DNA of 32,000 nucleotides from Candidatus Saccharimonadota bacterium (lineage in GTDB: Bacteria > Patescibacteriota > Saccharimonadia > Saccharimonadales > Saccharimonadaceae), in contig CP075337.1 in NCBI GenBank assembly GCA_025349965.1, positions 748,699 through 780,698 of the forward strand, given 5' to 3'. Positions within the stretch are counted from its first letter, which is position 1. Every line of letters starts with the position of its first letter. The notes beneath the pieces are model-generated. The model did not search any database. It had not been told where the DNA came from and saw nothing but the letters and a program-made list of their open reading frames with translations. Positions 7,877 to 25,355 of this stretch are shown here, in pieces. A program made the position numbers and the translations under genes.

Positions 7877-10815
7877 TCCGCAACTTCTCCCTCGGAGCCA
7901 AATGAAACTCGACGCGTTCCTCGGCCAGATTTTTTAATTTGGTGTAGCACCTCTCTGCCATCATCAAGATATACAGGAGAAGTCGCTTGCGCCTGCTGTT
8001 CCGCAGTAATGCGCGTTACATAGGGGCGGCCCCTATCGTAGAAGATTTTTGTTTCAACGCCACCTATAGTGAGTATTTCTGGTGATCGCCTCGTCATCTC
8101 AACACGAGCAGCCGTGTCATAATAGCGAGCAATAGTAATTCCCTTTTCGAGCATATGTCGATCAAGCAGCGCATCAAGCTCCTGGGCATTACGTGTCCGT
8201 GCCGCATAGTTTTTGAGGATAGACTCTATATCATGTTTTGTTAGGTCTGCCGGCGCCTGCAGCTGCCTGTACTGCTCGAGGTCTTCTGCGGTATGTATTC
8301 TTCGGTACTCGGCAAGCTCCTCAGCCACCGAGCGCAGTGCAAGCTGGGCGTCGCCAGGATTCTGAAGAGAGTAGCGCACAAGTTCAGCCTGGCTTGTTTC
8401 CGGAATATCATCGTGGCTCTTCACCACTTCTGGACTACCTACCTTTATGTCGCCAAACATCGCTTGTTCGCGCTCAACAACCATACCACCATCCATACGC
8501 GCAGAACCCTTGATTGGAACATAGTCAACGAGATTCGTCTGAAGCGCAAAACGACCAACCACCTCAGGTCTCACCCTCAGCACTAGATCAAGCACATTCT
8601 TCACCTGCTGCTCACCTTGGCGATCTCGCGTGTAATACCGAGGGAATCCAGCAATCAACTGGCGCGGCTCTGGCTCAGCAACACTCCTGTCATTAATTGT
8701 TCGGAAGCGCACGGCATTCGCATCGCGAATATCTCTATATACGTGCTCTTTGTTGTGCACACCAGCCTCGCGGTATGTCATCATAAACATGCCAGCGGTG
8801 AAATCATCGCGAAGAAGCCCTACCTCTTCATAGCTCGGGGAATCGAGGTTGATATCAGAGATGTTAATGCCTAGGCGATGTAGAATCTTTCCTGCAACAT
8901 CGCGTGCGCGCTCAACGCGACGCGGGTTAAGGTCATATGCCTTGGCGTAGAGATACTGCTCTCGTGGTGTCACGTTTTCTTGATCAGCCTCACGCAACGC
9001 CAACATAAGATCAAGTTGTGCAGAGAAATCGTCGTCCGCACTGCTTGTAAGGAGTCGCTTCCACTCAGTTCCAGACCCCTTCCTAAATTCCTGCAAGCCA
9101 CCTGTGTCAACAGCAGAGGCTGTCAGCGCCATGAAGGCAAGTTGACGCGAGACACGCTCACGCCTCAGCGACTCTACAAGGCCACGTGAAAGCTCTACCG
9201 CGACCGGGAAGCGTGTCATTTCTTGCCCAATATCAGTCAGTTCGTTTACCCTATCAAGCGCTCCAATAGCGCGAAGACGAGTCTTTGTATTTTGGATTGT
9301 TGCTGGCTGTACCTCATGTCCAGTGAAAAGCCCCAGCTCTTCAAAATCGTAGCTCGTTTTTGCATTATCAAGAATGTTTGAAGACAAGTCGGTATTGTAA
9401 ATCTCCGGCACTGCGTAGGGGTCGCGCTCATCAAGCGACTTGAACGGATAGAGCTTTCTATTCTGTTCGATGCTTCGCTCGGTGCGTCCAATAATCATTG
9501 GTGCGCAAATATACCCAACGCCACCCGCAACATCACGACCCGCTCGACCAATCTCTTGAATTACCTCAGACTGCGAAAGATATTCGCGAACCAGCCCCGG
9601 GTGACCATCGACGTCGAGGATTTCACGATTAATCGTTCCGTCCGTATACACGGCTGTCACCTTAGGAAGCGTAATACCTGACATACCAGCCGGTGTTGCA
9701 ATCGTTACAAGTTTTTTGCCACGTTCTGCGGGTCGAGCCACCTGCTTCATTTGAAACTTCGTCAACTCTCCGTGTAGCATTCTGAATTCGTATCCCGCCG
9801 AGCTTCCCTTCTCTCGCGCTTCAAGCGCACGAATCGTTTCGGTAATAACGCTTTTAATCTCTTTCATGCCCGACGTAAAGATGAGAGATGATTCATCGCC
9901 TCTACCATTCTCAACAAACGCCTGTACCGGAGTCATATCGGGCATTTCGTGAATTTCCACATTAAAGGGGCGGCCTTCAATATTCACGACGGGGACTTCT
10001 GCTTTTTCTGGATATTCAGCATCGGTCACCCTGCCCAATGAGTACTGCAGCGTCTTTGCGTCAAGCGTCGCACTGGCGGCAATCAAGCGAGCATTAGGGT
10101 TCTCACGCACCCACATTGCAGCATGACCAAGCGCAAGTTCAGAATAGAGATTTCGCTCATGGATTTCATCAATCAAGAAAGCAACCTTCTTGTCCTTGTA
10201 TTCCCTGTCGATATGTCCATCGGCAAACATCAGGTTGAGGACGTTTGGCGTCATAATAGAAATTTTGTTCTTGTCATGGATAGAGACATCACCTCCATGA
10301 CGTTTTCCTACAAGGTTTCTCGCCTCATGCTCACCCAGCTGACCGTTAAGCTCTTCCTGAATACGCTCATGAAGTCCATCGACAATAATACGGCGAGGTG
10401 GAACAACAAAAACATCATACCCAGCTTCGTAAAGATACTGTGGAATTTGTGTGCTTTTCCCTGAGCCAGTAGCACCGGTACTAATTACCACCTTATTGTT
10501 CTCAACAGCGTCAATAATTTCATTCTTGTGATTAATCGCGGGGAGTTCTCTGTTTCCAAGACCGATAATTTCCTGCTCGTCCTGCTCCACAGACTGGGGA
10601 GGACTTACGGCCATCTCTTCAGGACTCATCAACTCCGGAATGAATGTCGTTGAGTTATACTTCTCACGCAAGCTCGCTAGATTTTGAGCACGATCACGCC
10701 GTGATTGCTCTAAGTTCTGAATGTACCCATAGCTTGGCGTCGCAAACACACCCCTGCGCTCACTTCCGTGAGTACGTCGTGCATACGAAGCCTTCCCATT
10801 CAGTCGCTCTGCCAT
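7873..10815 (-). CDS. DEAH-box (HrpA/HrpB-like) ATP-dependent helicase
   Basis: Motif I GATGSGKSTQIPQ, motif II DEIHERN, motif III SATLD, FTSGMKEI, motif VI QEIGRAGR. The track start is GTG 10833; ATG 10815 (MAERLNGK) is more likely. Confidence 0.85.
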   Translation of the reverse strand: MAERLNGKASYARRTHGSERRGVFATPSYGYIQNLEQSRRDRAQNLASLREKYNSTTFIPELMSPEEMAVSPPQSVEQDEQEIIGLGNRELPAINHKNEIIDAVENNKVVISTGATGSGKSTQIPQYLYEAGYDVFVVPPRRIIVDGLHERIQEELNGQLGEHEARNLVGKRHGGDVSIHDKNKISIMTPNVLNLMFADGHIDREYKDKKVAFLIDEIHERNLYSELALGHAAMWVRENPNARLIAASATLDAKTLQYSLGRVTDAEYPEKAEVPVVNIEGRPFNVEIHEMPDMTPVQAFVENGRGDESSLIFTSGMKEIKSVITETIRALEAREKGSSAGYEFRMLHGELTKFQMKQVARPAERGKKLVTIATPAGMSGITLPKVTAVYTDGTINREILDVDGHPGLVREYLSQSEVIQEIGRAGRDVAGGVGYICAPMIIGRTERSIEQNRKLYPFKSLDERDPYAVPEIYNTDLSSNILDNAKTSYDFEELGLFTGHEVQPATIQNTKTRLRAIGALDRVNELTDIGQEMTRFPVAVELSRGLVESLRRERVSRQLAFMALTASAVDTGGLQEFRKGSGTEWKRLLTSSADDDFSAQLDLMLALREADQENVTPREQYLYAKAYDLNPRRVERARDVAGKILHRLGINISDINLDSPSYEEVGLLRDDFTAGMFMMTYREAGVHNKEHVYRDIRDANAVRFRTINDRSVAEPEPRQLIAGFPRYYTRDRQGEQQVKNVLDLVLRVRPEVVGRFALQTNLVDYVPIKGSARMDGGMVVEREQAMFGDIKVGSPEVVKSHDDIPETSQAELVRYSLQNPGDAQLALRSVAEELAEYRRIHTAEDLEQYRQLQAPADLTKHDIESILKNYAARTRNAQELDALLDRHMLEKGITIARYYDTAARVEMTRRSPEILTIGGVETKIFYDRGRPYVTRITAEQQAQATSPVYLDDGREVLHQIKKSGRGTRRVSFGSEGEVAD

Positions 10816-18209: not shown

Positions 18210-18221
18210 ATACAATTGTAT
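18210..18221. promoter_or_regulatory. Perfect 12-bp palindrome ATACAATTGTAT in the divergent HTH-remnant/pilin intergenic region (operator-like)
   Basis: The sequence is its own reverse complement. A further inverted copy, ATTGTA, lies at 18195-18200. Confidence 0.35.
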
Positions 18222-18251
18222 AGGAACATAAGCAGCTGTATAGTAAATAGC

Positions 18252-18878
18252 ATGAAAGGCAACTATAATACACGGGTCGGCTTTACGATTGTCGAGCTCT
18301 TAATTGTCGTAATAGTAATCGCAATACTCGCCGCGATTACCATTGTTGCCTATAACGGAATAACAAATCGAGCGAAGGATGCGGCCATGGCGTCAACCGC
18401 CAGCGCATTAGAGAAGCAGACGCTCATTAATAAAAATGTTAAATTTAACGGTTGGATACTTGACCCATCACCACTCCCAGCTACACGAGATGAATTTATA
18501 GAACGTCAACACTATCAAGCAATGAAAGAGAAGCTTTGCATTATTGAATATGAAGAGGCGTGCAATCCAGAGCTAGTACAGTATGAGGTGCCATTATATG
18601 ACAAATCAAAAGTATACATACATATCAGCTCACACCAATGTGGTGGCGCACCGTTCTCTACCAGTATAAATTTCTCCCACTGGAGTAATGAAAAATCTCG
18701 ATGGATAGACACCACGCTACGCACAGGATTTCAAAGCTGTAGCTACAACAACTCCATAAACGGCGCCTTTCAAGAATCAACCGAAGGCTACGAACGCCGT
18801 TGCCTTCCGCTTTCGGTCATAGCCTTAGAGAGCGCATTCGATGAGGCTTGTCGACTCGTAGGGCCAACCGCAGACTAA
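18252..18878 (+). CDS. Type IV pilin-like protein with a Cys-rich C-terminal domain of unknown family
   Basis: MKGNYNTRVG|FTIVELLIVVIVIAILAAITIVAYNG is a canonical G/FTxxE prepilin cleavage and methylation motif. There are six Cys in the C-terminal 130 aa. Confidence 0.8.
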   Translation: MKGNYNTRVGFTIVELLIVVIVIAILAAITIVAYNGITNRAKDAAMASTASALEKQTLINKNVKFNGWILDPSPLPATRDEFIERQHYQAMKEKLCIIEYEEACNPELVQYEVPLYDKSKVYIHISSHQCGGAPFSTSINFSHWSNEKSRWIDTTLRTGFQSCSYNNSINGAFQESTEGYERRCLPLSVIALESAFDEACRLVGPTAD

Positions 18879-20476
18879 ATATCGCCAATAGCCCGCATAA
18901 GCCCCACGAACAAGGGGTGCGCCCTATCTGGCCGACTCTTAAATTCTGGATGTGCTTGTGTTGCGACAAAGTATGGGTGATTTTTTGCCTCCACAAACTC
19001 AACAAGTTCACCATCTGGTGAAGTCCCTGAAACCGTCAATCCGCCAGCCTCGACTTCAGAAATAAACTGTCGATTTACCTCATAGCGATGGCGGTGGCGT
19101 TCTGTGATATTTTGTACACCGTATAACTGTGCAGTCTTTGAGCCCTTCTTTAGGGTCGCTTGGTAATCACCGAGTCGTAGTGTCCCACCAGTCGACTCTT
19201 TACCCGCCTGTCCGTCCATAATATAAACAACGTCATGCTTAGTCTTTGCGTCAAATTCAGTACTGTTTGCACCCTTCAATCCGCCAAGGCGAGCAGCTGC
19301 AATAACCGCAACCTGCATACCTAAGCAAATACCCAAATAGGGGACGTTGTTTTGAAGTGCATACGTCGCTGCGGCAACCTTGCCCTCAACGCCACGCGCA
19401 CCGAATCCGCCAGGAACAAGCAAGGCGTCTACACCCGAAAACTCTTTCTCACTAGACTTTTCAGCATCAAGCCATGCGATATTGAGTTCTACTTTTTCCT
19501 GCCATGCAGCGGCACGCAACGCCTCAAGCACAGATAAGTACGTGTCTTCATTATCAAGGTATTTCGCGACAAGCCCAACGGTCACTTTTTTTGCATACGA
19601 GGCCTGTTGCGCCTTTGCAAGCTGCTTCCACTTTTTCAAATCTGGCTTTTCTGAATTACCAATAAACTCATCGAGCACCGGACCAATACCGCTCGCATAA
19701 ATAGTAAGAGGAATTTCGTACACTGTTTTCGCGTTCGGAAGGAGCACAACGCCACCTTCACGAACGCCACCAAATCGACCAATCTTCTCTGCAATAGCGT
19801 GCGGTGCGGGCGCTTCAGTCCGCACCACTACACAATCAGGCGTAATACCGAAGCCACGAAGTTCGTGTAGTGCATTTTGCGCAGGCTTTGATTTAAACTC
19901 TTTACTCGTTTCAATAAATGGTGCATACACTACGTGCACGTAGAGGCAGTTTTCACGCCCCACCTGACCGGCAAAATCACGAATCGCCTCAACAAAGCTC
20001 AGTCCTTCGTAGTCACCGACCGTTCCGCCGATTTCAACAATATGCACATCGGAACCTTCGCCCGCATCAACAATCGCCTGTTTAATTGCGTTCGTAAGAT
20101 GTGGCACAAGTTGTACTGTTTGTCCGTTAAATTTTCCAGCACGCTCGTCGGCAATGAGTTGACTCAAGAGGCGACCGGAAAGCGTCGTACTCTTTTGTGT
20201 TAATTCAATATCCAAAAATCGTTCATAATGACCCAGATCAAGATCTGTCTCCGCCCCATCTTTCGTGACGAAACACTCACCATGCTCCCTAGGATTCAAA
20301 AGGCCCGCATCTACATTGAGATACGGGTCACACTTTTGAATAGAGACTTTACTCCCTTTGGCCTGCAAAATAGCACCGATACTTGCAGCGGTAATACCCT
20401 TACCAACGCCCGAAAGCACACCCCCAGTTACAAAAATATATTTTTGTTTCTCCCCCATGTCTGTACCTACCTCCAT
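18875..20476 (-). CDS. pyrG: CTP synthase
   Basis: KYIFVTGGVLSGVGKGI, and glutaminase domain GICLGMQ with HRHRYEVN. The alternative start ATG 20458 (MGEKQKYIF) is preceded by GGAGGT. Confidence 0.95.
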   Translation of the reverse strand: MEVGTDMGEKQKYIFVTGGVLSGVGKGITAASIGAILQAKGSKVSIQKCDPYLNVDAGLLNPREHGECFVTKDGAETDLDLGHYERFLDIELTQKSTTLSGRLLSQLIADERAGKFNGQTVQLVPHLTNAIKQAIVDAGEGSDVHIVEIGGTVGDYEGLSFVEAIRDFAGQVGRENCLYVHVVYAPFIETSKEFKSKPAQNALHELRGFGITPDCVVVRTEAPAPHAIAEKIGRFGGVREGGVVLLPNAKTVYEIPLTIYASGIGPVLDEFIGNSEKPDLKKWKQLAKAQQASYAKKVTVGLVAKYLDNEDTYLSVLEALRAAAWQEKVELNIAWLDAEKSSEKEFSGVDALLVPGGFGARGVEGKVAAATYALQNNVPYLGICLGMQVAVIAAARLGGLKGANSTEFDAKTKHDVVYIMDGQAGKESTGGTLRLGDYQATLKKGSKTAQLYGVQNITERHRHRYEVNRQFISEVEAGGLTVSGTSPDGELVEFVEAKNHPYFVATQAHPEFKSRPDRAHPLFVGLMRAIGDI

Positions 20477-20567
20477 GGGACTTCATTATAGCACGATTTT
20501 TAGCCAATGCGCTATATATAGAGTGTTGTAGTATTTGCTAATACACCACATGTAGCGGATTAATACG

Positions 20568-20810
20568 TCAAGCTGCGAGTGCCCTGGCACCAAGTTCTGT
20601 ATTTATTTGATGCAGTCGCCCCTCGTAAAACTCCTTATTCTTAAGCACCTCCTGGCGGTCTGCTTCATAAAAATTAGGTGCCTGCAGGTTCTTCTCTATT
20701 TTTTCTATCGTATCAACGAGATGATCCCGTTGTTCAAGTAATTCCACTCTCGAAAACTCCTGTAGTGTTCTTACAGTATGTATCATACCTTTGTCTCTCT
20801 TTTGTCTCAT
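20568..20810 (-). CDS. Hypothetical 80-aa helical protein
   Basis: This ORF fills the gap between the ORF56 terminator and the pyrG promoter. It is charged and coiled-coil-like. It is one of only two ORFs here ending in TGA, so it is doubtful. Confidence 0.35.
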   Translation of the reverse strand: MRQKRDKGMIHTVRTLQEFSRVELLEQRDHLVDTIEKIEKNLQAPNFYEADRQEVLKNKEFYEGRLHQINTELGARALAA

Positions 20811-20832: not shown

Positions 20833-20867
20833 ATAAAAAATGCACCACCTCCCGAGTAATGCATTTT
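20833..20867 (-). terminator. Intrinsic terminator after the 56-aa ORF
   Basis: AAAATGCA ... TGCATTTT outer stem with an inner GC-containing stem. On the minus strand a T6 run follows. Confidence 0.6.
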
Positions 20868-20875
20868 AACTTTGG

Positions 20876-21046
20876 CTATTGGCAGCCAAGACACATTGTA
20901 AGATCGGCCGGGTCCGCCTGAACTGTCACGCCAGCGGTTTGAGTTTTTTGCTGTGCAAGTGCCATTGCATTCGCCATCGCCGCGTCAATTGCAGCAAGCT
21001 TTTCATCAAGTGTCATTTCATCTGATATGATAGCGTTTGAGTTCAT
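20876..21046 (-). CDS. 56-aa protein ending in CxxC (MNSNAIISDEMTLDEKLAAIDAAMANAMALAQQKTQTAGVTVQADPADLTMCLGCQ)
   Basis: Below the ORF-track size cut-off and found by manual translation. GGGGAGAA RBS lies 6 nt upstream of the ATG. It has its own promoter (TAGACA-16-TATAAT) and its own terminator. Confidence 0.55.
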   Translation of the reverse strand: MNSNAIISDEMTLDEKLAAIDAAMANAMALAQQKTQTAGVTVQADPADLTMCLGCQ

Positions 21047-21100
21047 GTTGGTTTCTCCCCTATTTTTTCTTATACACTTATATGGTGCTTATGTTTATTT

Positions 21101-21129
21101 ATTATACGCCACATATAGCGTTTGTCTAC
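21101..21129 (-). promoter_or_regulatory. Promoter of the 56-aa ORF with an NrdR-box-like 16-mer in the spacer
   Basis: Minus strand TAGACA (-35), a 16-nt spacer, then TATAAT. The minus-strand 16-mer ACGCTATATGTGGCGT (21106-21121) covers most of the spacer and its last base overlaps the -10. It matches 12/16 positions of the NrdR box consensus acaCwAtATaTwGtgt as I recall it. A degenerate second box is centred near 21081, about 32 bp away. Confidence 0.45.
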
Positions 21130-21533
21130 ACATTTTTGGTGTAAAAATACCAACGTTTTTCTGAGGATTTCTCTGTGTTCGGTTGCCCCAGAGGTACTCG
21201 ATATGCACTAACGCCATCAAAGACTGGCGGAATGCTTCCGAACGTTGCAACAACTATATCAAACGCTTTTTCAGCCTCCTCCCCAGCAAGTTTCTGGGCT
21301 AGGCCAGAAATATACGCACCATTTTGACCATTCTCCGTAGACCATAGGGCTATACTCACTCGTGGGTCATTTTCTACGTTGAGTGAATGCTGATGGGTGT
21401 CTTTTGAGAACCAATAAACAGCTTCGTTATCTGCTAATATGTGCACTGGAGTCGCCCACGGCGAACCATCCACGTTTAGAGTTGCGAGTGTACCAACTCG
21501 ATTATTACTTAAGATTGCTTGAATGTTTTCCAT
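21126..21533 (-). CDS. Pyridoxamine 5'-phosphate oxidase-family (FMN-binding split-barrel) protein
   Basis: VGTLATLNVDGSPWATPVHILADNEAVYWFSKDTHQHSLNVENDPRVSIALW fits the PNPOx-like fold signature. Its ATG lies 1 nt after the nrdB stop. Confidence 0.7.
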   Translation of the reverse strand: MENIQAILSNNRVGTLATLNVDGSPWATPVHILADNEAVYWFSKDTHQHSLNVENDPRVSIALWSTENGQNGAYISGLAQKLAGEEAEKAFDIVVATFGSIPPVFDGVSAYRVPLGQPNTEKSSEKRWYFYTKNV

Positions 21534-21534
21534 A

Positions 21535-22533
21535 CTACTTTGTACTATTCACTTCGTAACTTGTATTAGTACTTTCAAAGAAATTCACAAGTTCGAGCGT
21601 GTCGTTCGCAGCAGCCATCCACTTGGCAGGATTTGAAACATTATATTCTGGTTCAAACCCAAGTTCTTCAAGGCGGCGATCAGTCATGTGCATGACATAT
21701 TGATTCACATAGTCGGCATTAAGACCGAGAATACCATTTGGCAGCATGTCTTCGTTATATGCTTTCTCGAGCTCTACTGCTTCAAGGATAAGCGCACGGA
21801 TTTCATCGGCAAATTCTTGTGTTTGCAGTTCAGGATTTTCATCAAGAATAGTGAGGAGTAGGTTGATTCCAAAGGTGAGGTGGAGGTTTTCATCGCGAGT
21901 AATCCAATCGAGGAGTGATCCAACGTTACGAAGGAGGTTACGTTGACGGAAACTCATACCAACCATAAAGCCAGAGTAAAACCAAATACCCTCAAGCACA
22001 ATATTGTACGCCACGAGCGAGCGAACAAAATCCTTCTTGCCTTCAAGCGTGTAGATATCAAGATTCGGATCAAGCATCACTTCAAGGTGCTTATTCTGGA
22101 ACGCCGCCTTGTCCGCGAGTGACTTTTTACCAAAGCCGGCTGAATAAATTTCCTCACGGTCAAATGGAAACGTCTCAATAATATACTCAAACGTCATGAA
22201 GTGATTTGCCTCTTCCCACATCTGCTTTGAGAGATAAATCTGCGCCTCAGCCGCGTTTACGTACGGATAAATACCGAACGCGAGCGACTTGTTAATAAGG
22301 AGCTCATTTGGGTTGAGGTAGCTAATTACCGTCTTAAGCGCATGCTTCTCTTCATCCGTAAGCTTATCGAAATCGGCAAGATCCTGAACAAGCTGCACTT
22401 CGTTTGGAAACCATGTATTTGATACTGCCTGGTCATAGAGGTCCTTCGCCCACTGATAGCGAATGGGCTTAAGCTGTAGCCCGTCGCGAAGACCAGAGCC
22501 GAGAATTCCATGTGGTTGATTATTATCTGCCAT
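21535..22533 (-). CDS. nrdB: Ribonucleotide reductase beta subunit, class Ic-like (Phe at the radical-Tyr position)
   Basis: Metal ligands E77 (NPNELLIN), E108-x-x-H111 (WEEANH), VLEGIWFYSGF and RDENLHLTF. Residue H111+4 is F115, where class Ia has Tyr. The C-terminus is NFFESTNTSYEVNSTK. GGAGGAATT RBS. Confidence 0.9.
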   Translation of the reverse strand: MADNNQPHGILGSGLRDGLQLKPIRYQWAKDLYDQAVSNTWFPNEVQLVQDLADFDKLTDEEKHALKTVISYLNPNELLINKSLAFGIYPYVNAAEAQIYLSKQMWEEANHFMTFEYIIETFPFDREEIYSAGFGKKSLADKAAFQNKHLEVMLDPNLDIYTLEGKKDFVRSLVAYNIVLEGIWFYSGFMVGMSFRQRNLLRNVGSLLDWITRDENLHLTFGINLLLTILDENPELQTQEFADEIRALILEAVELEKAYNEDMLPNGILGLNADYVNQYVMHMTDRRLEELGFEPEYNVSNPAKWMAAANDTLELVNFFESTNTSYEVNSTK

Positions 22534-22542
22534 AATTCCTCC

Positions 22543-22779
22543 TTAAAATAGTGCCATTTCTTGTGTTACCATTACTTCTTCATTGTCCACACCCACATAA
22601 CTCGCCGGGGGCTGATACGCCTCTCTACTCATTACAAAGAGCGCCGTCCTACCGAGATGATTGTCGATTGCGCATAGTTCGTCCAGCAATTCAGCCTGAA
22701 GGCCTTCGGAATAAGATTGAGTCGCAAGACTCTCGGCTATTTCTCCACGCACGCTCACGAGTGCTTCCGTTTCCACCAT
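22543..22779 (-). CDS. Hypothetical acidic 78-aa protein encoded between nrdA and nrdB
   Basis: The ATG shares a base with the nrdA stop (TAATG). The ORF ends 9 nt before nrdB. Net charge is about -10 and there is one Cys. No family recognised. Confidence 0.5.
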   Translation of the reverse strand: MVETEALVSVRGEIAESLATQSYSEGLQAELLDELCAIDNHLGRTALFVMSREAYQPPASYVGVDNEEVMVTQEMALF

Positions 22780-25187
22780 TATGCAGCCCTCTTTGCAAAA
22801 CCAAAGCCAACTTTTCGCCCGCCACTTGCAGCAGTAATCTTTTCAGCCTTGTTTGACTTTACTGTCGTTTGTTCAGATTGGTGACGTGGCTTCACATGGA
22901 GGTAGTAAGTTGTCTTGAGTCCGCGGCGCCATGCCTCTGAGTAAATGTCTACATACTCATCAATGTCACGCGTCTCAAGATACATATTGCGACTAATCGC
23001 TTGGTCTACCCATTTCTGCGCCCGCGCCGCTACCTCAATAAAGGCGTACGGTGAAAGCTGGAAACTCGTTTTATAAATAGCCTTGATATTGCTTGGGATG
23101 GCATCGATGTTCTGGATATCACCCTGGTTAATGAGTAGTTCATCCTTCACTTCGTCCCAAATACCAAGCCCCTTAAGGTCACGAACAAGATTTGTATTCA
23201 CTTCAAGAAACTTGCCGTTCAACGTTGAACGACTAAAGATCTGAGAGAATTGCGGATCGATGCCAGGAGTGGTGCCGGCAATATGTGCAATGTTTGCGGT
23301 TGGTGCAATTGCCATAAGTGTCGCGTTACGCATCCCCTTCTTCACCTTGCCACGAAGCACATCCCAATCAAGGCGCGTCTTGAGGTTTACCTCAACCTTT
23401 ACGCCACGATCCTTTGTGAGATTCTGGATTGTATCAATTGGAAGAATCCCCTTGCTCCAGCCACTCCCCTTAAATGCAGGGTAGCTTCCGAGTTTCTGGG
23501 CAAGTTCGGCGGACTCATCAATTGCGTAGTAGCTAATATATTCAGTGAGTTGGTCGATAAGATCGTATGCTTCTTCAGATTCGTAACTGTACCCAAGTTT
23601 CTCTACTACATCCATAAAGCCCATAAGCCCAAGGCCGAGTGCACGCGTACTCTTGTTTGCGTTCATTGCCTCCGGAACAGCAAGCTCGGTGATGTCTACA
23701 AGATTATCAAGTTGACGAATAGCGCTCCGTGCACTTTGCTCAAGACGCTTCCAATCCCACGACTTGTCATCATTAAGATGCGCCGAAAGGTTAATACTCA
23801 CAAGGTTACATACAGCAATGTTTTCATTGTCTTGGGGCAATGTAATTTCAGTGCAAAGGTTTGAAAGGTGGATCGTGCCAGTATTATTGTTCAAGGCACG
23901 CACATTGATAGTGTCCTTCCACGTAAGCCATGGGTGACTGGTTGCTTGAAGCTGAATAAGAATCTGACGGAATTGTTGGCGCGCAGTTGTCTTTTCAAAC
24001 TTACGAAGCTTACCCGCTTCGGCCATCTTTACATATTCGTTATACCGCTTACTAAACTCGTCGCCGTAAAGTTCGGTGAGGTCCATAACTTCCGCCGGGT
24101 CAAAGAGATACCAGTCAGCATCCGCCTCAACGCGGCGCATAAATTCATCGCTAATAAAGGTTGCCGTATTTGCAAAACGCGTACGAAGATATGGATCGCC
24201 CGAGTTTGCCTTAAGGTCAAGGAACTGCGGAAAATTAAGATGCCAATTCTCCATATAGAGCGCTGCCGCCCCCGCCTTCTTCCCCTTGCGACTCACCGCA
24301 AAGAGCGCCGTATCAATCATTTTCATAAACGGAATTGGGCCAGTACTTTCAGTGTTCGTTGTTTTAACGGGACTCCCCGCTGCACGTAGTTTGGTAAAGC
24401 CAATACCAATACCACCAGTCCCCTTTGCGATATACATTGTATCGCGAACACTTTTCGCAATTGACGCCATGTCGTCATCAACGTTAATTAAGAAGCAGTT
24501 AGAAAGTTGCGGAAATGCACCACCTGCATTTACGCGAGTTGAGCCGCCCGGAACATAATCAAGACTACTAAGATGCTCGTAGAAATCAAGCGCTGAAGCA
24601 GTCGGATCTTCCGCAAGAAGCGAAAGCCCCATTGCAATACGCATGTGCGTATATTGCGGAACCTCGATTGGATCACCGCTTCCTTTTCGTAGCGCGTATC
24701 GATTTTTATTCGTGATAACCCCGAGATACTTAGAAAGGTCGTCCTTTGTCGGGTCAAGCGCCTTAGCGAGCTTCTTAAGATCAAATCTACCATCTGTCAT
24801 GCGAACATCGAGTAGCCCACTTTTAGTAGCCTCTTTTAGATAGTCTGCGAATTTTACTTCATGAAGTTTTTTCAACTCACTGGCGCTCGTGTAGTCACCA
24901 AGCACATTCTTATAGATAGTCTTTAGAAGAAGTCGCGCGGCAATCTTGTCGTAATCAGGATCATCCTTCACATTCTGAAGTGCAGTTTGGATTACCGCCT
25001 CATCAAGCTGCTCGGAAGTAATACCATCGAAGAGCGTTAGCTGGAGCTGTGACGCAACCTCAACCACTTTTGCGATTTGATCATCAAGCCCTTCACTTGC
25101 CGCAACAAGCGCTAAGTTAATCTTATTGGCATCAAACGGCTCTTTTGTCCCGTCGCGTTTTACAACACTAATTGATGTCATCCCCAT
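22779..25187 (-). CDS. nrdA: Ribonucleotide reductase alpha subunit, class I, with N-terminal ATP-cone
   Basis: ATP-cone VVKRDGTKEPFDANKI. Catalytic motifs QLSNCFL, NLCTEITLP, AVCNLVSINL and TTYYL. 802 aa. Confidence 0.95.
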   Translation of the reverse strand: MGMTSISVVKRDGTKEPFDANKINLALVAASEGLDDQIAKVVEVASQLQLTLFDGITSEQLDEAVIQTALQNVKDDPDYDKIAARLLLKTIYKNVLGDYTSASELKKLHEVKFADYLKEATKSGLLDVRMTDGRFDLKKLAKALDPTKDDLSKYLGVITNKNRYALRKGSGDPIEVPQYTHMRIAMGLSLLAEDPTASALDFYEHLSSLDYVPGGSTRVNAGGAFPQLSNCFLINVDDDMASIAKSVRDTMYIAKGTGGIGIGFTKLRAAGSPVKTTNTESTGPIPFMKMIDTALFAVSRKGKKAGAAALYMENWHLNFPQFLDLKANSGDPYLRTRFANTATFISDEFMRRVEADADWYLFDPAEVMDLTELYGDEFSKRYNEYVKMAEAGKLRKFEKTTARQQFRQILIQLQATSHPWLTWKDTINVRALNNNTGTIHLSNLCTEITLPQDNENIAVCNLVSINLSAHLNDDKSWDWKRLEQSARSAIRQLDNLVDITELAVPEAMNANKSTRALGLGLMGFMDVVEKLGYSYESEEAYDLIDQLTEYISYYAIDESAELAQKLGSYPAFKGSGWSKGILPIDTIQNLTKDRGVKVEVNLKTRLDWDVLRGKVKKGMRNATLMAIAPTANIAHIAGTTPGIDPQFSQIFSRSTLNGKFLEVNTNLVRDLKGLGIWDEVKDELLINQGDIQNIDAIPSNIKAIYKTSFQLSPYAFIEVAARAQKWVDQAISRNMYLETRDIDEYVDIYSEAWRRGLKTTYYLHVKPRHQSEQTTVKSNKAEKITAASGGRKVGFGFAKRAA

Positions 25188-25301: not shown

Positions 25302-25355
25302 ACTACATATGTAGTGTCTACGTAGAACTATAGACCCTATATATATGGTTTGCAA
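25302..25355 (-). promoter_or_regulatory. nrdA promoter (TTGCAA-17-TATAGT) with tandem NrdR-box-like palindromes
   Basis: On the minus strand the -35 is at 25350-25355 and the -10 at 25327-25332. Box A, ACCCTATATATATGGT (25334-25349, 13/16 to consensus), fills the spacer. Box B, minus-strand ACACTACATATGTAGT (25302-25317, 12/16), lies just downstream of the -10. The box centres are 32 bp apart. Confidence 0.5.

Follow-up and report, generated by a model that had tools for sequence, protein, structure and literature searches.

The window described here is a stretch of 32,000 nucleotides from a Candidatus Saccharimonadota bacterium (contig CP075337.1). It carries a ribonucleotide reductase (RNR) operon that ends in a small open reading frame (ORF) of 56 codons, called ORF56. 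On the minus strand the genes are arranged in the order nrdA, a 78-codon ORF, nrdB, a PNPOx-like gene, a 79-nt spacer and ORF56. An earlier note on this DNA had suggested that the redox-shuttle tail of NrdA, the catalytic (alpha) subunit, was split off, or replaced, as this stand-alone small protein. Five independent comparative lines now support that suggestion, and each comparative check that the note had put forward came out on its side.

The ORF56 gene

ORF56 occupies positions 20876..21046 of the minus strand. It starts with ATG, consists of 56 codons plus a stop, and encodes MNSNAIISDEMTLDEKLAAIDAAMANAMALAQQKTQTAGVTVQADPADLTMCLGCQ. A ribosome-binding site, GGGGAG, is located 8 nt 5' of the start codon (21055..21060, minus), and AGGGG(A/G) is kept at this position in relatives. 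Further upstream is a sigma-70-type promoter, TAGACA and TATAAT separated by 16 nt (21101..21128, minus), with 11/12 matches; both hexamers are conserved in 24 related loci. Just past the stop codon, a hairpin followed by a T-run resembles an intrinsic terminator (20837..20867, minus).

The earlier note had described a gene 79 nt past the last nrd-operon gene with a ribosome-binding site, promoter and terminator of its own, and each of these could be located. It had also called the ORF unlisted, which is incorrect. GenBank annotates it as hypothetical protein KI440_04035 of Candidatus Saccharibacteria bacterium TM7i, which is 100% identical to the ORF56 product.

Translation of the window gives a C-terminus reading ...ADPADLTMCLGCQ-stop. 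The terminal motif, DPADLTMCLGCQ-COOH (20879..20914, minus), contains a CxxC pair, Cys52 and Cys55, followed by a terminal Gln, and is the proposed redox-shuttle end of the protein. No second copy or remnant of ORF56 was found within the window.

A reductase without tail cysteines

With each turnover, the alpha subunit of an ordinary class I RNR is left with a disulfide in its active site. The flexible C-terminal tail of the same subunit swings in with its Cys pair to reduce it, and is then re-reduced by thioredoxin, glutaredoxin or NrdH. In class I and many class II enzymes a Cys pair on this disordered tail re-reduces the active-site disulfide, and the pair is itself reduced by thioredoxin or glutaredoxin (10.1101/2022.04.23.489257; PMC4078304). 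Class I RNRs "almost exclusively" have such a double-cysteine motif at the C-terminus (PMC9669993).

NrdA in the window (802 residues; 22779..25187, minus) is made up of the ATP-cone, the all-alpha domain and the barrel recognised by Pfam. The motifs SNCF, NLCTE, AVCNL and TTYYL are present, and with them the active-site Cys, Asn and Glu and the YY dyad. Its last 45 residues (22782..22916, minus) contain no Cys and end in GFGFAK (...GGRKVGFGFAKRAA). The translation thus agrees with the earlier description of an enzyme that keeps its catalytic motifs and lacks tail cysteines.

The match between NrdA and the NCBIfam family NF005101 (1312 bits) stops at profile position 788 of 822, so the C-terminal end of that family is missing here. 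The closest solved structure is NrdA of P. aeruginosa (5IM3), which scores 647 bits versus 416 for the human enzyme.

Conservation of ORF56

Homologues of ORF56 are numerous. A search of 5.8 billion protein clusters returned 728, nearly all of 55-58 residues, and those with names come from Saccharibacteria. A profile search of 1.84 billion representative proteins gave 131 family clusters, nearly all of 32-90 residues; P0123, P0211 and P0223 are repetitive, low-complexity outliers. P0223 (321 residues) matched the C-terminal profile through five copies of ...KLQKLTFCLGCQN... and looks like an unrelated tandem repeat.

Two blocks of the protein, M-x-L-x-x-KLAAID and DPADLTMC-x-GCQ-stop, are invariant among 25 close homologues. 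Among 35 diverse family members, L17, P46, C52, C55 and the terminal Q56 do not vary, and in alignments of the family L13, E15, K16, L17 and I20 are invariant or nearly so. The end of the protein can be written (I/V)DP(A/S)D-x-x-x-C(E/L/M)GCQ-COOH, with CEGCQ in many members, including all phage copies.

The pattern of nucleotide variation is that of a coding sequence. In the two conserved blocks the entropy at third codon positions is 1.29 and 1.42, compared with 0.00-0.21 at positions 1 and 2, and 58 distinct DNA versions encode only 11 peptides. With variation concentrated at third positions, ORF56 is under purifying selection as a protein. It is a real, strongly conserved gene.

ORF56 matched no described family of known function. 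The earlier note had named clear homology to an unrelated family as evidence that would count against its proposal; Pfam, NCBIfam and the PDB gave no family match, and PHROGs gave a marginal match to a family of unknown function. Profile comparison with the PDB returned designed coiled coils that match the helix and nothing informative.

AlphaFold2, run on an alignment of 35 sequences, predicts a single alpha-helix at residues 13-38 (20933..21010, minus). The LDEKLAAID block lies within it and has a predicted local distance difference test (pLDDT) score of about 77-80; the remainder is coil at lower confidence. For the isolated chain, residues 39-56 are predicted as coil with one short turn (pLDDT about 60-66). 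One helix plus a C-terminal segment that is predicted to be flexible is as expected for a tethered swinging arm, with the predicted helix as the proposed docking element.

Co-occurrence with Cys-less NrdA

Related loci were sampled in two directions. In the forward direction, 80 genome loci were retrieved through ORF56, and in 77 of them nrdA and/or nrdB lies beside ORF56 on the same strand. ORF56 thus belongs to a class I RNR operon.

Two layouts can be distinguished. In about half of the loci ORF56 starts 8-175 nt (mostly 12-110) past the nrdA stop codon and precedes nrdB. The rest, the window among them, have ORF56 after nrdB, and the PNPOx-like gene often lies between the two. The default place of ORF56 is right behind nrdA rather than behind nrdB.

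The NrdA tail could be read in 75 of 76 genome loci and has no Cys in any of them; the one other reading runs into masked sequence. Nearly all of these tails end in a GFGFAK-type motif. This motif (22782-22820, minus, in the window, and in related loci) is strongly conserved, co-occurs with ORF56 and is absent from Pseudomonas-type tails, and it may be the docking site of ORF56.

The reverse sample consists of 80 metagenome loci retrieved with the last 120 residues of NrdA alone. None of the 80 tails contains a Cys. An ORF56 homologue is present in all 56 loci that have at least 3 kb of downstream sequence, and the loci in which no homologue was seen end before its expected position. The co-occurrence of ORF56 with Cys-less NrdA is complete in both sampling directions (77/80 ORF56-derived and 56/56 NrdA-derived loci for the gene neighbourhood). 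Relatives with a Cys-less NrdA and no such ORF, which would have spoken against the earlier proposal, did not turn up among the loci with enough downstream sequence.

The association extends to distant members. In locus L103, where the ORF56 homologue is 29% identical, the operon is nrdA-nrdB-PNPOx-ORF, and NrdA ends in ...RRGFGFAKI, again without Cys.

Likeness to the tails of related reductases

The NrdA clade closest to that of the window includes Pseudomonas, Legionella, cyanobacteria and haloarchaea, with tails of the ...IDNPDCEACQ-COOH type. C-termini were read for six members of this P. aeruginosa-type clade from plasmid or chromid records. They end in ...PQACSIDNPDCEACQ (P. aeruginosa), ...KACRIDDPECEACQ (Aureimonas), ...MCSILDPNCEACQ (Legionella), ...LCKVEDPTCEACQ (Natrononativus), ...MACSIDNPDCEACQ (Acinetobacter) and ...NFDDCEACQ (Acaryochloris). 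All follow C(S/R/K)(I/V)(D/E)(D/N)Px-CEACQ-stop or a close variant.

ORF56 has the two cysteines that class I tails carry within about their last 10 residues (...MCLGCQ-stop), and its end resembles the tails of the nearest alpha clade, over a short match. In all loci it is a separate ORF, where a class I tail is a covalent part of alpha. Beyond the required CxxC, the two kinds of terminus share a Glu, a small residue, the terminal Gln and an upstream (I/V)D.P, a combination that would not be expected by chance. Homology of the terminal motif is likely. The check proposed earlier, for relatives that carry this end fused to NrdA, comes out in favour as far as the short terminal motif is concerned.

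Only the last ten residues or so resemble known tails, and fission of an ancestral NrdA is for this reason not told apart from replacement of the tail by a mimic. A search for closer Cys-bearing relatives in phage and plasmid collections yielded no hit above 45% identity across the final 240 residues of NrdA, in a sampling that did not include the nearest tail-bearing proteins of the NF005101 type.

Promoter and NrdR-type boxes

The spacer of the ORF56 promoter is filled by an NrdR-type box, ACGCTATATGTGGCGT in the minus-strand reading (21106..21121). It matches the classical NrdR consensus at 12/16 positions, the count given earlier. In NrdR boxes, positions C4, A6, A8, T9, T11 and G13 are highly conserved (PMC13584703), and the ORF56 box holds all six.

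A weight matrix was built from the nrdA-upstream boxes of other genomes. It gives five strong matches in the window: two upstream of nrdA, two upstream of pyrG and one in the ORF56 promoter. The last of these, at 21.8 bits, is the best in the window. The nrdA-upstream boxes form a tandem (25334-25349 and 25302-25317, 32 bp start to start), and boxes of the same kind occur upstream of nrdA in most related loci.

Promoters of the NrdR regulon have two 16-bp boxes, 15-16 bp apart (PMC13584703). For ORF56, a second, weaker box about 32 bp from the first had been claimed, and this can be upheld in part. A possible degenerate box lies at 21073..21089, about 33 bp downstream of the strong one, and its half-site GCAC(C/T)A is conserved; as a whole it scores -1.8 bits.

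The co-regulation of ORF56 with nrdA that had been proposed finds support in relatives. Of the 30 loci typed nrdA-nrdB-ORF56, 23 have a box of at least 16 bits at 48-95 nt upstream of ORF56, as does the truncated locus L044; the background rate is 0.04 matches per 180 nt. No NrdR-type box is found upstream of ORF56 in the loci where it directly follows nrdA. From this distribution, it appears that ORF56 has kept or gained RNR-type control where it is off the nrdA transcript. The regulator acting at these boxes is presumably NrdR itself, for which a pattern search of the window and about 100 related loci, the rest of the genome lying outside its scope, found no zinc-ribbon/ATP-cone ORF.

Copies in phages

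ORF56 can also be found away from nrd genes. Three genome loci without nrd genes have a phage or prophage context (integrase, terminase, amidase, phage-type GroEL). Twelve viral contigs from IMG/VR hold a copy that has neither nrdA nor nrdB inside 8 kb; among the neighbours are genes for exonuclease, RNA ligase, polynucleotide kinase/phosphatase, amidase, integrase and terminase. Taking the genome and viral sets together, all 15 copies away from nrd genes are in a phage-type context.

In eight phage-type loci, short metagenome contigs included and none with RNR genes inside 8 kb, ORF56 is followed by a gene for a redoxin of the glutaredoxin fold. This gene comes directly after ORF56 in seven of them and one gene further on in L098. 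Two types of redoxin occur. One is NrdH-like, with CVQC...WSGFRPD (L088 8001-8410, with the redoxin at 8165-8410; L089; L092; L099 44-487); against TIGR02194, whose cut-off is 85.75 bits, the L088 protein scores 86.6 and the L099 protein 84.6. The other is a CAFC glutaredoxin-like protein (L091 4956-5353; L093 8001-8398, with the redoxin at 8159-8398; L095 4274-4671; L098 8001-8588) that matches PF00462 with E about 5e-13. Some of the eight contigs are closely related, and they perhaps represent four or five independent lineages.

NrdH is a reductant dedicated to RNR tails. That it is paired with ORF56 gives independent, if indirect, evidence that the ORF56 cysteines are the substrate of a redoxin, and ORF56 plus redoxin looks like a two-gene redox module in these phages.

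A different neighbour was seen in a prophage-like locus, L061 (6246-8162), where an ORF56 homologue directly follows the gene for a 557-residue GroEL-like chaperonin.

Other genes of the operon and its surroundings

NrdB (21535..22533, minus) has its best PDB match in the R2 protein of Chlamydia trachomatis (1SYY, E = 5e-70). In the alignment with 1SYY there is a Phe at the position of the radical Tyr (EEANHFMTF vs EEAVHTHTF) and a Glu as first metal ligand (NPNELL vs STAESL). By these residues the RNR of the window is of the class Ic type (R2c). The saccharibacterial enzyme is probably a Mn/Fe class Ic RNR.

The PNPOx-like protein (135 residues; 21126..21533, minus) is of the flavin mononucleotide (FMN)/F420 split-barrel kind (PF01243, E = 7e-14) and falls under the cut-off for the F420 PPOX families. 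Within the sub-clade that has the nrdA-nrdB-ORF56 layout, its gene is conserved as part of the operon; many such loci carry it, and so does the distant operon of L103 (6570-6980). The protein could supply electrons, in a flavin-dependent manner, to the R2c cofactor or the redox relay.

The 78-codon ORF, ORF78 (22543..22779, minus), overlaps the nrdA stop codon and fills the gap between nrdA and nrdB. It contains "LDELCAID" and was considered as a remnant of ORF56, which was rejected at an hhalign probability of 0.5%. Since tblastn matches it in 1 of 80 related loci, it is probably not a conserved gene. Between nrdA and nrdB of the Acinetobacter baumannii locus L086 (2372-2506) there is likewise a small ORF, of 44 codons, annotated as "YajC".

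The pyrG gene (CTP synthase; 18875..20476, minus) has tandem NrdR-type boxes upstream (20509-20558; 20.1 and 16.6 bits). In 39 of 52 related loci the 180 nt upstream of pyrG hold a box of at least 12 bits, compared with a background of 0.04 per 180 nt, and pyrG therefore appears to share RNR-type control in Saccharibacteria. Between these boxes and the ORF56 terminator is an 80-codon ORF (20568-20810, minus) with no Pfam match and no tblastn match in 80 related loci. Convergent with pyrG, and overlapping its 3' end by 4 nt, is an ORF of 220 residues (18216-18878, plus) with a type IV pilin-like N-terminus, GFTIVELLIVVIVIAILAAITIVAYNG. Pilus-assembly genes are also found near the nrd genes of L103.

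Proposed mechanism

Taken together, the comparisons make it likely that ORF56 is a detached, trans-acting dithiol-shuttle tail of a class I (Ic-type) RNR. It would supply the tail cysteines that NrdA is left without. In this proposal the protein has three parts: an N-terminal amphipathic helix that holds the LDEKLAAID block, a linker that is variable and flexible, and DPxDxxxCxGCQ-COOH at its end.

By analogy with NrdJb, a separate subunit of a class II RNR described below, we infer that the helix docks and that the CxxC pair shuttles electrons. The docking surface on NrdA would perhaps lie close to its conserved, clade-specific GFGFAK end. With the helix in place, the CxxC end would enter the active site and take over the disulfide, and the oxidised ORF56 would be reduced by a thioredoxin-fold redoxin.

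Supply of the protein would be tied to that of the enzyme. ORF56 would be made together with RNR, either by co-transcription after nrdA or, as in the window, from its own promoter with an NrdR-type box. The extra copies in phages, often accompanied by an NrdH- or glutaredoxin-type redoxin of their own, would most likely raise the turnover of the host RNR during infection.

A wider picture follows from this, which is put forward with a little more confidence than doubt. It is that of a three-component class I RNR, in which the redox arm is a free subunit of 56 residues, under NrdR-type control and suppliable in trans. Phages would bring a copy together with a dedicated NrdH- or glutaredoxin-type reductant, and so boost the deoxynucleoside triphosphate (dNTP) supply of the host without carrying RNR genes.

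Several points weigh against the proposal of a detached tail. The support for a shuttle is wholly comparative, and the docking role of the predicted helix is a guess. This helix, conserved as it is, has no counterpart in known tails. The likeness to those tails covers about 10 residues, and five residues separate DP from the first Cys in ORF56, where P. aeruginosa has two (P-D-C). No NrdA with a full ORF56-like extension, and hence none fused to a whole ORF56-like sequence, was found in the profile search of 1.84 billion representative proteins.

Other points concern reductants and regulation. No cellular reductant could be identified from the window, none of the cellular nrd operons examined has a redoxin gene beside it, and around half of the copies in phages lack a neighbouring redoxin. 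For some Cys-less class II RNRs, small-molecule reductants have been proposed to act directly (10.1101/2022.04.23.489257), so that a tail is perhaps not strictly required. In the ORF56 promoter, the second NrdR site stands at a linker distance of 16-17 bp, and the left half is conserved in relatives while the right half is not.

Alternative explanations

The possibility of direct reduction leads to an unlikely alternative, in which NrdA is re-reduced by a redoxin or small thiol, and ORF56 is an accessory or has an unrelated thiol role (a disulfide carrier or stress peptide, for instance) and is merely co-located. That some Cys-less class II enzymes may be served by small molecules speaks for it, as do the ability of dithiothreitol (DTT) to reduce active sites directly (PMC4520616) and the phage copies of ORF56 that have no RNR gene nearby. 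Mere co-location does not, however, account for a co-occurrence with Cys-less NrdA that is complete in both directions, for a terminal motif specific to RNR tails or for NrdR-type regulation common to ORF56 and nrdA; in four phage loci, moreover, the partner is NrdH-like, from a family known as RNR reductants. ORF56 could, in principle, act on NrdB instead. As a cofactor-maintenance or metal-handling factor for a Mn/Fe NrdB, comparable to YfaE of E. coli or NrdI of class Ib, it would use its CxxC to bind metal or to pass electrons to the metal site. Its place in the nrd operon, adjoining nrdB in many loci, would suit such a factor, a terminal CxxC is able to ligate metals, NrdB is of the unusual R2c type, and a flavoprotein-type gene, the PNPOx-like one, is in the operon too. 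Yet ORF56 has only two Cys and no predicted folded domain, its default position is after nrdA rather than nrdB, its end copies the NrdA tail of the nearest clade, phages pair it with NrdH or glutaredoxin and not with NrdB, and the Cys-less NrdA would be left unexplained. This makes a role on NrdB quite improbable.

A regulator or inhibitor of RNR, which would mimic the tail and occupy the tail-binding or active-site channel with a logic like that of yeast Sml1, is a very improbable reading. A small, largely disordered protein (as predicted) with a tail-like end and a repressor-type box would fit it, and phages often carry modulators of host enzymes. The NrdA concerned, on the other hand, has no tail of its own to compete with, co-transcription with nrdA would be odd for an inhibitor of an essential enzyme, and the invariant Cys pair and the adjacent phage redoxins point to redox cycling. 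It is hardly credible that ORF56 is a chance open frame, or the precursor of a modified peptide that has nothing to do with RNR. Its shortness, the lack of a database family and a Cys-rich C-terminus like that of some peptide precursors speak for this, but a chance ORF is excluded by the pattern at codon positions together with over 700 conserved homologues, and its neighbours are nrd genes with no modification enzymes nearby. Neither an NrdB factor nor an inhibitor nor a thiol peptide explains the loss of Cys from NrdA, the copied motif or the phage pairing without NrdB.

Significance

Literature on the RNR of Saccharibacteria or Patescibacteria, or on a separate class I tail, gave no prior description in a search that was not exhaustive. 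What would be new is a class I (Ic-type) redox tail in the form of a stand-alone micro-protein, present across a phylum and borrowed by phages. If the proposal is true, it is the first natural class I RNR tail that works as a diffusible micro-protein, and in effect a new RNR subunit.

The gene pair in phages would likewise be a new kind of auxiliary gene set, one that raises the host dNTP supply through cheap, rate-limiting redox parts only. In the laboratory, the ORF56 system would allow tail docking and active-site re-reduction to be studied in trans with a partner of 56 residues that is easily synthesised and mutated. A function would also be provided for a widespread "hypothetical" micro-protein of the Saccharibacteria, which include human oral episymbionts. 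More generally, it would be a clean example of how a micro-protein may originate, here from a flexible appendage of an enzyme or as the substitute for one.

Comparison with known systems

YfaE is a folded [2Fe-2S] ferredoxin with four ligand Cys that acts on NrdB and is encoded after nrdB in E. coli. ORF56 shares with it the small size, the presence of Cys and the place at the end of a class I nrd operon. Unlike YfaE, ORF56 has two Cys and no such fold.

The NrdH proteins and glutaredoxins of nrd operons are also small CxxC proteins tied to nrd genes, and they share with ORF56 a role in electron relay to RNR (proposed in the case of ORF56). In ORF56, in contrast, the CxxC is at the extreme C-terminus, and phage copies adjoin redoxins rather than replacing them. 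ORF56 matches neither PF00462 nor TIGR02194, and a single helix plus coil is predicted in place of a thioredoxin fold.

The closest likeness in sequence is to the P. aeruginosa-type NrdA tail (5IM3). Both have a CxxC in the last five residues of a segment that is flexible (as predicted, for ORF56), CEACQ-COOH in the one and C(E/L/M)GCQ-COOH in ORF56, and in both it comes after (I/V)D.P. ORF56 differs in being separate, with its own start codon, ribosome-binding site and, in the window, promoter, and in having a conserved predicted helix. The fused tails have a third, upstream Cys that ORF56 lacks, and the distance from DP to Cys is longer in ORF56.

A class I alpha subunit made of more than one chain is known from Aeromonas phage Aeh1, whose nrdA encodes two polypeptides that must assemble (PMC3045599). 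There the catalytic core is split by a mobile endonuclease gene, whereas in the present case the separation concerns just the terminal redox arm, without involvement of a mobile element.

The best parallel in function can be found in the split class II RNR of P. aeruginosa. Its NrdJb subunit carries out thiol-disulfide exchange and binds near the C-terminus of the catalytic subunit NrdJa, and split NrdJ has been described as a unique split RNR in a free-living organism (PMC4520616). NrdJb and ORF56 are both separate chains encoded beside a catalytic subunit without shuttle cysteines, with a thiol-disulfide role that is proposed for ORF56. A catalytic chain that lacks the shuttle Cys and a neighbouring gene that encodes them, as in a split RNR of this kind, are present in NrdA and ORF56 as well.

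The two systems differ in their parts and their distribution. NrdJb is part of a class II enzyme that depends on B12, and it is much larger, with folded IscU-like and zinc-finger domains (10.1101/2022.04.23.489257); ORF56 has 56 residues and two Cys and accompanies a class Ic-type enzyme. The IscU-like and four-Cys zinc-finger domains of the NrdJb family have no match in ORF56, and its NrdB is of the R2c type. Split NrdJ is limited to P. aeruginosa and a few close gammaproteobacteria, while ORF56 is spread over a phylum and its phages. ORF56 would thus work like NrdJb without belonging to the NrdJb family, and NrdJa/NrdJb, so far the only characterised split of dithiol exchange, would gain a phylum-wide exception in class I.

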